DNA from: Rhizodiscina lignyota
Lineage: Eukaryota
NCBI GenBank assembly: GCA_010015805.1
Contig: ML978123.1
Coordinates: forward strand, 2,914,001 to 2,978,000
DNA length: 64,000 nucleotides
Direction of reading: 5' to 3'
Position 1 is the first letter of the stretch, and each line of letters starts with the position of its first letter. The notes beneath the pieces are model-generated. The model saw nothing but the letters and a program-made list of their open reading frames with translations. It ran no database searches and was not told the DNA's origin. The position numbers were made by a program, and so were the translations under genes. Positions 3,337 to 5,935 of the stretch are shown piece by piece.

Positions 3337-4032
3337 TGTGAAGCAATTGGAAGAGTGAGGTTTGGGCGAAGATTGATTGTCAGAGATGAAAAGGACAATT
3401 CAAGATCGGGGGAATGCTGCAATCGATATGCTCCCGCAGAACGCGGCAGTGGCCGCCAGGGCAGCACGAGGGAATGTGCAGCTCGCTAAGAATAGGCGCG
3501 AGCTGTTCTCGTGTCAGTGTGGCGGTGCGTAATCAGGTCTTTCGTCCACGTTGAGCTGAAGAGGTGAGGTTGATGGCAAAGGACCGTCGAGGTGACTTTC
3601 TAGGCAGAGATGTTTTGGTCTGCTGAGTGATTCTCTACCCTGAACCCAGACGTATTCATTTCGGCTTGATTCACGAGGGCCGATTGGTGGTCTGCACGCG
3701 TCTCATGCAAGTGAAGGTTCCATGGCCGATGGGTAGGAAGATCGCGAAAGAAGTGCAGAGTCGGGAACAGAATTGGCCTTCGTTCGAACGTCAAACAGGT
3801 TTTCAGAGTCGATAGCTTTCAACTTACGCGTCGCAGAGCGTGAGTGAGACGCGACAGCAGAGAGTCGAGAGGCGACTTTGAAACGACTGGCGCCTCGCTT
3901 AGCTGGCCAATCACGGAAGAGCCACCCACTAACATGTCGCCCGCATTTTCTGCACACTCTTCCTTTCTTCCTTCAACCGGAGCGCACAACAACCTTCAGG
4001 AATTCCAATCATCAACATCCTGAAGCGCAAAG

Positions 4033-4613
4033 ATGGCACCAAAAAAGAGCAAGAAGACGGCTGACTCCATCAACTCGAGACTTGCGCTCGTGATGAAGAG
4101 CGGAAAAGGTATCTATACTTCGAGCACAATTTCTCAAGCATAGTATCCTGACAATATTGCAGTCACTCTGGGCACAAAGTCGACACTTAAGAGCCTTCGT
4201 TCTGGCAAAGCCAAGCTTGTGATCGTATGATAGCTTCAATCTAAAGCTCTTCTTGCAACGACTGACCCTCTCGCAGATTGCAGGCAACACTCCTCCTCTC
4301 AAGAAGTCCGAACTCGAATACTACGCTATGCTTTCCAAGACCAATGTCCATCACTTCGCCGGCAACAACGTTAGTACCCTGCGGTTTCCTTCACACCTCA
4401 CATTTGTCCAACGATCAGACGCGGCTGTCCGCGTTCTGTAGGACTTACCCTGCGAAGAAGTCTCGCTAGACAGACTTTGGAGGGTTGATCAAAAGCTAAC
4501 TTGGCAATAAACAGATTGAGCTGGGCACCGCATGCGGTAAACTCTTCAGATGCAGCACTATGGCCATCTTGGACGCTGGTGACTCTGATATCCTTTCCAC
4601 CACCCCAGCTTAA
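4033..4613 (+). CDS. RPL30: 60S ribosomal protein L30 (eL30), 4 exons
   Basis: Exons 4033-4108, 4163-4224, 4277-4369 and 4515-4613 splice to [109 protein letters not shown]. Confidence 0.97.
4447..4485 (+). promoter_or_regulatory. Predicted kink-turn RNA hairpin in RPL30 intron 3
   Basis: ACCC/GGGT C-helix, 3-nt bulge TGC, tandem G.A/A.G pairs, then A.G, G.U and an AAGTCT/AGACTT stem. It ends about 10 nt before the GCTAAC branch site. Confidence 0.7.
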
Positions 4614-5093
4614 ACGGAGGAATTCACGATGGCAACTACAAGCCCATCAAGCACGCCGAGGCGCTTGTCATGACGGATACGGTGCCAGGCATCTCGTGCA
4701 TTTGCACTGTTGTAGCATAGTTCTCATAGAGGATTAAAGTCATGCCTTAATGCCGCATTGATGCAATAAAAGTCTTCAGACTGGACCGCCTCATAGCGTG
4801 TTTTTTATTTAACATATAGCCATCTACCTATGCACAAATTCGTGAAATGCATGTAACAAATTGACTTGAAACTCCCACCCATTTCGTCTTGAAATTTCTT
4901 GCTTCACTTCCAGGTCGGCTCAGTATTTCGACTGGGGCCACCGGAGTTTTTGTTGTTCCGATCGGTTCTTTGTGGGCCCAAATTACGACGCCACTCGCTT
5001 GGAAATCACGATTGACGACAGAACAAGAGGAGTTCAACTTCAACTCTCCTCCTTCCCATCAACAACCCAACACTTCTCTCCAATACCGTCAAG

Positions 5094-5935
5094 ATGGCAC
5101 GCCGTCCAGCGAGGTGCTATCGTTACTGCAAGAACAAGGTCAGTACCTTCTCCTGCGGCTTCACAGCAGCACCGAAAGCAGAGCCGTACTGTCGAGAGCC
5201 CGAATTTCGCCTGTTTTAGCATTGTGTCTACGGAAACTGACATTTTCCCTTAACAGCCATACCCGAAGTCTCGTTTCAACCGTGGTGTCCCCGACCCCAA
5301 GATCCGCATCTTTGACCTGGGCCGCAAGCGCGCCAACGTCGACGAGTTCCCGTTGTGCATCCACCTTGTCTCCAATGAGTACGAACAGTTGAGCTCCGAG
5401 GCTCTCGAAGCCGCCCGTATCTGCGCCAACAAGTACCTCGTCAAGGTTGCCGGCAAGGAAGGTTTCCACCTACGTGTCCGCGCGCACCCCTACCACGTCA
5501 TCCGTATCAACAAGATGTTGTCGTGCGCTGGTGCCGATAGACTGCAGACTGGAATGCGTGGTGCCTTTGGCAAGCCCAACGGCACTGTTGCCCGTGTCAA
5601 CATTGGCCAGATCATTCTCTCTGTCCGCACGAGGGATACTCGTAAGTTGATACCGTTTGCTATAAGCTACCGCGCGAATGAATGCTGACACATTTGCAGA
5701 CCGCGCTACTGCCATCGAAGCTCTCCGTCGCTCGCAGTACAAGTTCCCTGGCCGACAAAAGATCATCGTCTCCAAGAACTGGGGCTTCACGCCTCTCCGC
5801 CGTGAGGAGTATGTCGAGAAGCGCAACGAGGGTCGTTTCAAGGTCGACGGAGCGTACGTGCAGTTCCTGCGCAACAAAGGTCCTCTCGCCTACAACATGC
5901 GCCGCTTCCCCGATGCGTTTGAGACGGAGGCATAG
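5094..5935 (+). CDS. RPL10: 60S ribosomal protein L10 (uL16), 3 exons
   Basis: Exons 5094-5138, 5257-5641 and 5700-5935. [39 protein letters not shown]...[15 protein letters not shown]...[15 protein letters not shown]. Confidence 0.98.

Follow-up and report, generated by a model that had tools for sequence, protein, structure and literature searches.

The analysed stretch of DNA (the window) comprises 64,000 nucleotides (nt) of Rhizodiscina lignyota (NCBI GenBank assembly GCA_010015805.1, contig ML978123.1, positions 2,914,001 to 2,978,000 of the forward strand). It carries the RPL30 gene, with a reading frame of 109 codons plus stop in four exons; the three introns (4109-4162, 54 nt; 4225-4276, 52 nt; 4370-4514, 145 nt) all have GT-AG ends and the sizes given in an earlier annotation of this locus, hereafter the original prediction. 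Pfam Ribosomal_L7Ae (PF01248) matches exon 3 (E 0.0085, below the cut-off) and exon 4 (E 1e-4, at the cut-off), and within that family we take the product of 4033-4613, recognised from the protein, to be eL30. A genome search matched the RPL30 DNA once. The element under study is a kink-turn (k-turn) hairpin in the third and last intron, beside the branch site; two neighbours were overlooked by the original prediction, an upstream k-turn-like hairpin in the same intron (4406-4444) and a k-turn in the leader (3977-4036).

The main hairpin (4447-4485) consists of a canonical (C) helix (4447-4450/4482-4485), a bulge (4451-4453), the non-Watson-Crick pairs G4454.A4481, A4455.G4480, A4456.G4479 (3b.3n = A.G, as described for Kt-7) and G4457.U4478, and a non-canonical (NC) helix (4457-4463/4472-4478) with six Watson-Crick pairs (4458-4463 with 4472-4477). 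It has the standard k-turn layout, a 3-nt bulge followed by G.A and A.G pairs, and direct checking found every base named in the original prediction at its place. The branch site is close by, as had been claimed: nine bases (4486-4494) intervene before the branch hexamer, and the predicted branch A lies 15 nt past the third C-helix pair. Taken alone, the string is modest evidence. The k-turn descriptor matches 9 of 1000 shuffled versions of intron 3 and 38 places across the window (22 + 16), and intron 3 as a whole folds no better than its shuffles (z -1.12). Chance resemblance would account for matches to so loose a descriptor, and descent alone for sequence that related loci share by kinship; a chance origin is outweighed because the k-turn is conserved across orthologous introns.

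Orthologues were collected with a motif that covers the splice acceptor and the first part of exon 4, is blind to the intron interior and matched at least 112 metagenome loci; with the window included, a donor site was found in 111 of 113, giving 92 distinct introns. The sample requires an intron at this position (intron-less genes and distant fungi lie outside it), and the loci are kin, their counts being non-independent events. The strict k-turn is present in 87 of the 92 distinct last introns, compared with a mean of 2.55 and a maximum of 4 in dinucleotide shuffles (20 rounds), 4 matches on the reverse strand of the same introns, and 0/25 in first introns of the same genes; its density is 8.8 matches/kb in the intron vs 0.12 and 0.14 in the flanks. 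By the descriptor it is absent from L007, L035, L056, L068, and L093. A covariance model recovers it in L056 (25.5 bits) and in the donor-less L110 (36.7 bits); L035, in which the strict main k-turn is missed, keeps the upstream hairpin.

Alignment of orthologous introns, proposed as a check in the original prediction, bore out conservation of the tandem G.A pairs and of the stems. In 85 of the 87 introns (L003 and L111, with their hairpins in opposite order, were omitted) both-side changes occur in 8 of 11 pairs and 93.1% of cells pair; the covariation score is reached by 0/500 shuffles, controls slid along the alignment pair in 16-58%, and the count of further pair types is unexceptional (59/500 shuffles). 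Both helices are kept paired across homologues, and the RNAalifold consensus picks the k-turn register unprompted. On a rough tree of at most 171 coding bases, whose noise inflates all three counts, changes that keep pairing at the nine stem pairs number 27 (both-side) and 34 (one-side), vs 9 that break a pair. L2, which lies outside the descriptor (the G.A pairs lie inside it), is G in 81/85. Conservation and covariation show, as far as sequence comparison can, that 4447-4485 is a k-turn maintained by selection. Chance or descent alone is largely refuted and scarcely credible, since the core is constant in introns that otherwise differ greatly in length and sequence, and since compensatory changes recur in the k-turn stems.

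The k-turn is tied in position to the branch point and not to the 5' splice site. Across the 87 introns the branch A (a consensus pick) lies 7-20 nt past the third C-helix pair (median 15, standard deviation (SD) 2.6; 11-20 nt in 85/87) and the 3' splice site 21-46 nt past it, whereas the distance from the 5' splice site to the hairpin ranges over 17-163 nt (SD 31.9), an architecture as wholly intronic as had been predicted. Pairing is predicted to increase at 14 nt upstream of the branch A and beyond, reaching 0.67-0.80 at 14-23 nt vs 0.28-0.47 in first introns. U2 is described as pairing with some ten bases of the intron upstream of the branch, the strand then entering the SF3a/SF3b tunnel (PMC8516221, PMC10379813); given this pairing length and the hairpin position, the hairpin would begin at the edge of the U2 footprint. 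In the aligned orthologous introns the branch hexamer was not seen within conserved stems, and sequestration of the branch inside them was rejected for that reason. In 16/92 last introns vs 1/25 first introns the branch pentamer picked is non-consensus, having U where a purine is expected; these pentamers cluster in related loci, and a weak branch site might aid regulation.

Table 1 Features at the RPL30 locus. Positions are those of the window.
Feature	Positions	Strand	Basis
RPL30 (eL30) gene	exons 4033-4108, 4163-4224, 4277-4369, 4515-4613	+	frame, GT-AG ends, Pfam match
Intron 3 (last), host of the hairpin cassette	4370-4514, 145 nt, phase 0	+	frame, GT-AG ends
Main branch-proximal k-turn	4447-4485	+	base check, orthologue conservation, covariation, RNAalifold
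Predicted branch site	4495-4500, branch A 4499	+	consensus match
In-frame stop upon intron 3 retention	4439-4441, 24th intron codon	+	sequence
Upstream k-turn-like hairpin (least certain site)	4406-4444	+	looser search, alignment, folding
Leader k-turn, 5' strand	3977-3985: 5n-3n 3977-3979, 2n G3980, 1n A3981, C helix 3982-3985	+	descriptor, alignment
Leader k-turn, 3' strand	4025-4036: C helix 4025-4028, bulge 4029-4031, 1b G4032	+	descriptor, alignment

According to the published accounts, eL30 binds k-turns in ribosomal RNA (rRNA) helix 58 and in its own mRNA (PMC3706390), and yeast L30 on its own transcript blocks U2 binding (PMC11585973, PMC8047918). The intron 3 element is probably an eL30 autoregulatory element controlling splicing. 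The ligand of the main k-turn is very likely free eL30, which in surplus would bind it and hold the RNA in a bulky, kinked form some 10-50 nt ahead of the branch A. Such bulk, in the stretch used for U2 pairing and SF3a/SF3b, would slow loading of the U2 small nuclear ribonucleoprotein (snRNP), and intron 3 would be kept. Repression of splicing of its own message upon binding is likely, and a steric block of U2 loading is the means towards which we lean; the block would be steric because the branch sequence lies outside the conserved stems. The retained transcript would run into an in-frame stop (Table 1), and its product, ending without the 32 residues of exon 4, would not be a working protein. 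The original prediction had proposed both feedback by eL30 and a blocked branch site. The first is fitted by a conserved, covarying, branch-fixed k-turn, found once in the genome at the stringency of the search, from which eL30 binding and an effect on splicing are what we infer; of the second, closeness to the branch site stands, and a block would be steric.

The same site and ligand might instead have another output, namely an alternative splice site, nuclear retention or decay, or pairing of donor and branch across the cassette. The minimum-energy fold of the window intron does pair the 5' splice site (4370-4375) with the fully complementary branch hexamer (4495-4500); full complementarity of this kind occurs in 13/92 introns vs 8.3 permuted (1.2% of 2000), an excess uncorrected for kinship; and yeast L30 is described as stopping U2 from afar, which makes bulk beside the branch unnecessary. 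We nevertheless consider this alternative unlikely: the complementarity is missing in 79/92 introns and joins donor and branch consensus sequences that are near-complementary anyway, no conserved alternative splice site was seen, and the constant spacing from hairpin to branch A favours a local effect over a diverted transcript. Donor/branch pairing as a regulatory feature was rejected as weak, kinship being uncorrected.

It is still less likely that the ligand is another L7Ae-family protein (Snu13, eL8, eS12, or Nhp2), or that the k-turn belongs to a Snu13-bound box C/D or kink-loop intronic RNA. Proteins of this family are described as binding k-turns broadly (PMC5061560, PMC6298567), the intronic k-turn has, by our own reading, the strand polarity of a terminal box C/D k-turn, and mammalian intronic RNAs bound by 15.5K are described as suppressing splicing of their own intron (bioRxiv 10.64898/2026.08.03.742641). 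However, neither box C (RUGAUGA) nor box D (CUGA) is present: L3 is A or C and U in 0/85, and 3b.3n is U.U in 0/85, which sets the element apart from box C/D sites. A snoRNA (small nucleolar RNA) is also opposed by Rfam: over 3500-5500 (E up to 10) it gave two weak snoRNA matches, both under the gathering score and both outside the intron. A genome search located the motif a single time, within the eL30 gene, which counts against another ligand of the family; this match was obtained with one fairly tight pattern, the only one used (a control pattern gave none), and looser sites may exist. No other eL30-type site above 13 bits was found in the window.

Several points weigh against the proposed autoregulation. 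The k-turn descriptor was devised after the sequences had been seen. No k-turn was found in the introns of L007, L068, and L093. In-frame stops are not enriched in last introns (77/92 vs 84 +/- 2.8 shuffled), and selection favouring an early stop was accordingly rejected. By published folding rules, a k-turn with 3n = G and a C:G pair at -1 folds in Mg2+ (PMC5061560, PMC6298567); the main k-turn has 3n = G in 85/85 introns and C-G at -1 in 84, and by these rules would not need protein to fold in Mg2+, which makes it no obvious fold-on-binding switch. Single-sequence folding of the window element favours a non-kinked register slipped by 3 nt (-16.0 vs -10.0 kcal/mol), and in nearest-neighbour folding the k-turn register is the minimum in just 9/85 orthologues. 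The preference could reflect either a shortcoming of the energy model or a genuine second state. The slipped register can pair in 64/85 orthologues and is broken in 21; as a universal switch it was rejected on account of those 21, and covariation supports the k-turn register.

The predicted protein-free folding also speaks for a constitutive fold that makes a long intron more compact or aids splicing without feedback, the hairpin drawing the intron ends together. Orthologous last introns are 60-242 nt long (median 149), and first introns (n=25) 51-85 nt (median 64). Yet the intron is long because of its hairpins, two of the three introns that lack them measuring 60 and 73 nt, and a plain stem would keep neither the G.A pairs nor the G at L2; we regard a purely constitutive role as very unlikely.

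The upstream hairpin was found with a looser search in 55/87 introns (55/80 with room for it; shuffles 4.9%), a stricter first pass having given 39/87. The spacer between the tandem hairpins is 4 nt in 28/55, and 3b = C, or 3n = G without a Watson-Crick pair, in 45/55, for which folding is predicted. In an alignment of 49/55 (four long introns, one doubtful, and one further long one were dropped, and two re-registered) 96% of the C-helix cells are paired, and both-side changes occur in 24 cells (0/500 shuffles); the count of pairs with both-side changes is unexceptional (274/500). In the window this hairpin has a C helix (4406-4409/4441-4444), a bulge (4410-4412), G4413.A4440, and a long NC stem, and it is irregular, with A4414.U4439 at 2b.2n, an extra unpaired base after 2b, and a 6x2 loop. 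An A.U pair at 2b.2n is found in 7/55; Thermus thermophilus Kt-23 has the same pair and is described as still folding (PMC2790904). The extra unpaired base is a difference from the rRNA motifs Kt-7 and Kt-23 and makes the kink less certain; among the three k-turn sites of the window this is the least certain. It probably contributes a second, weaker eL30 site, which would add avidity.

Some introns depart from the tandem order. L091 (115-150, 219-265), L064, L097, L003, and L111 have two distant main-type k-turns, or both types in reversed order, which suggests duplication of one module; the related introns L021, L033, L043, L044, and L088 apparently have three k-turn-like hairpins each.

In the leader k-turn of the window, 2b is the A of the start codon (4033) and 3b.3n is U.G, as described for the Saccharomyces cerevisiae RPL30 site. 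A yeast-type leader k-turn was found in 29/52 genes with a locatable start codon and leader (shuffled leaders 1.7%), with the A of AUG at 2b and U.G at 3b.3n in 29/29; its C helix shows 8 both-side-change cells (0/500 shuffles), 2/6 pairs changing. L007 and L068, with short last introns lacking the k-turn, sit in genes that have the leader site (L068 by eye). Through the leader k-turn, eL30 probably damps translation initiation as well. Between its strands an inner stem (3994-4023) is seen; orthologues differ in sequence, with similar pairing by eye. A leader hairpin like the upstream intronic type lies about 68 nt before the start codon of L008, a gene without the AUG k-turn.

A fuller scheme, which we consider doubtful, is a three-site circuit in filamentous ascomycetes, derived from a split yeast L30 switch: the leader k-turn would govern translation, cooperative binding of two eL30 molecules to the tandem intronic pair would gate U2 loading as a sharp threshold, and a periodic purine run would let the free RNA slip into the non-kinked register, which eL30 would convert to the kink. 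Such a circuit, if true, would amount to a naturally occurring branch-site switch that is movable and gated by a protein.

The autoregulatory k-turn of S. cerevisiae RPL30 is reportedly the subject of Eng and Warner 1991, Vilardell and Warner 1994, Chao and Williamson 2004, and Macias et al. 2008. The yeast element, as published, comprises exon 1 and the intron start, and serves control of both splicing and translation (PMC11585973, PMC8047918, PMC6298567, PMC3706390). Shared with it, on that description, are a k-turn in the eL30 transcript, 3n = G, and the proposed block at U2 recruitment. Unlike in yeast, the splicing element lies inside the last intron beside the branch site, is often tandem, and is separate from the leader element, which contains the AUG and no splice site. 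The yeast site likewise contains the AUG. Presumably working like the yeast system without its layout of exon 1 and 5' intron end, the present one is classed as a variant of L30 feedback, a new architecture of a known regulation. The replacement of the yeast architecture envisaged in the original prediction holds for the intronic layout alone; a yeast-type k-turn over the AUG persists in the leader. If our reading is true, the L30 feedback of budding yeast extends to filamentous fungi, and a site at the U2 footprint would be a simpler system for studying a block of U2 loading than yeast, where L30 near the 5' splice site acts from afar. It would also offer a compact part of 40-80 nt for protein-controlled splicing in fungal strains.

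The archaeal l7ae leaders, as described (PMC6298567), likewise place a k-turn beside a functional signal in the message of an L7Ae-family ribosomal protein, which thereby regulates its own expression; those k-turns act on translation and are predicted to be unfolded without protein, whereas for the intronic site folding in Mg2+ is predicted.

A catalogued fungal rpl30 motif, suspected in the original prediction, has no Rfam family or match over 3500-5500, but one has been published. The 'rpl30 motif' of Li and Breaker 2017 is reported from L30 genes of filamentous ascomycetes (47 examples, 26 species) as a hairpin with a conserved purine-rich internal loop, mostly in 5' untranslated regions (UTRs), with autoregulation proposed (PMC5640933). 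As a purine-rich-loop hairpin at an L30 gene, it fits the intron and leader sites alike: its stated 5' UTR location suits the leader site and its broad species list the near-universal intron site, and it may correspond to either element or to both. The matches of our model above 18 bits, in 93 loci, are by contrast all intronic. That the motif is or includes the intron element seems to us evenly balanced; possibly the intron cassette is already on record, with neither its structure nor its place recognised. The main text of that paper contains neither 'kink' nor 'k-turn', and the branch-site link and the tandem form are absent from the parts of it available to us (PMC5640933). RPL30 is absent from the main text of Gao, Jones and Rivas 2021 (PMC8216456), and a literature search, with subscription journals outside it, found no description of an intronic branch-proximal RPL30 k-turn. 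For a possibly orphan published motif, the present analysis would supply a structural identity, the k-turn, and a testable mechanism.

Two minor observations concern other genes. The sole large subunit (LSU) rRNA-like match, G000:C23:66535-66818 (L115), is 284 nt long and scores 71 bits; nuclear ribosomal DNA is seemingly absent, or was overlooked in a stricter first look. An RPL10 gene (uL16; Pfam PF00252; 5094-5935, +) follows RPL30 on the same strand at a distance of about 480 nt; RPL10 motifs occur in 45/112 metagenome loci, just 80 of which have full flanks, and RPL30-RPL10 appears to be a conserved gene pair.
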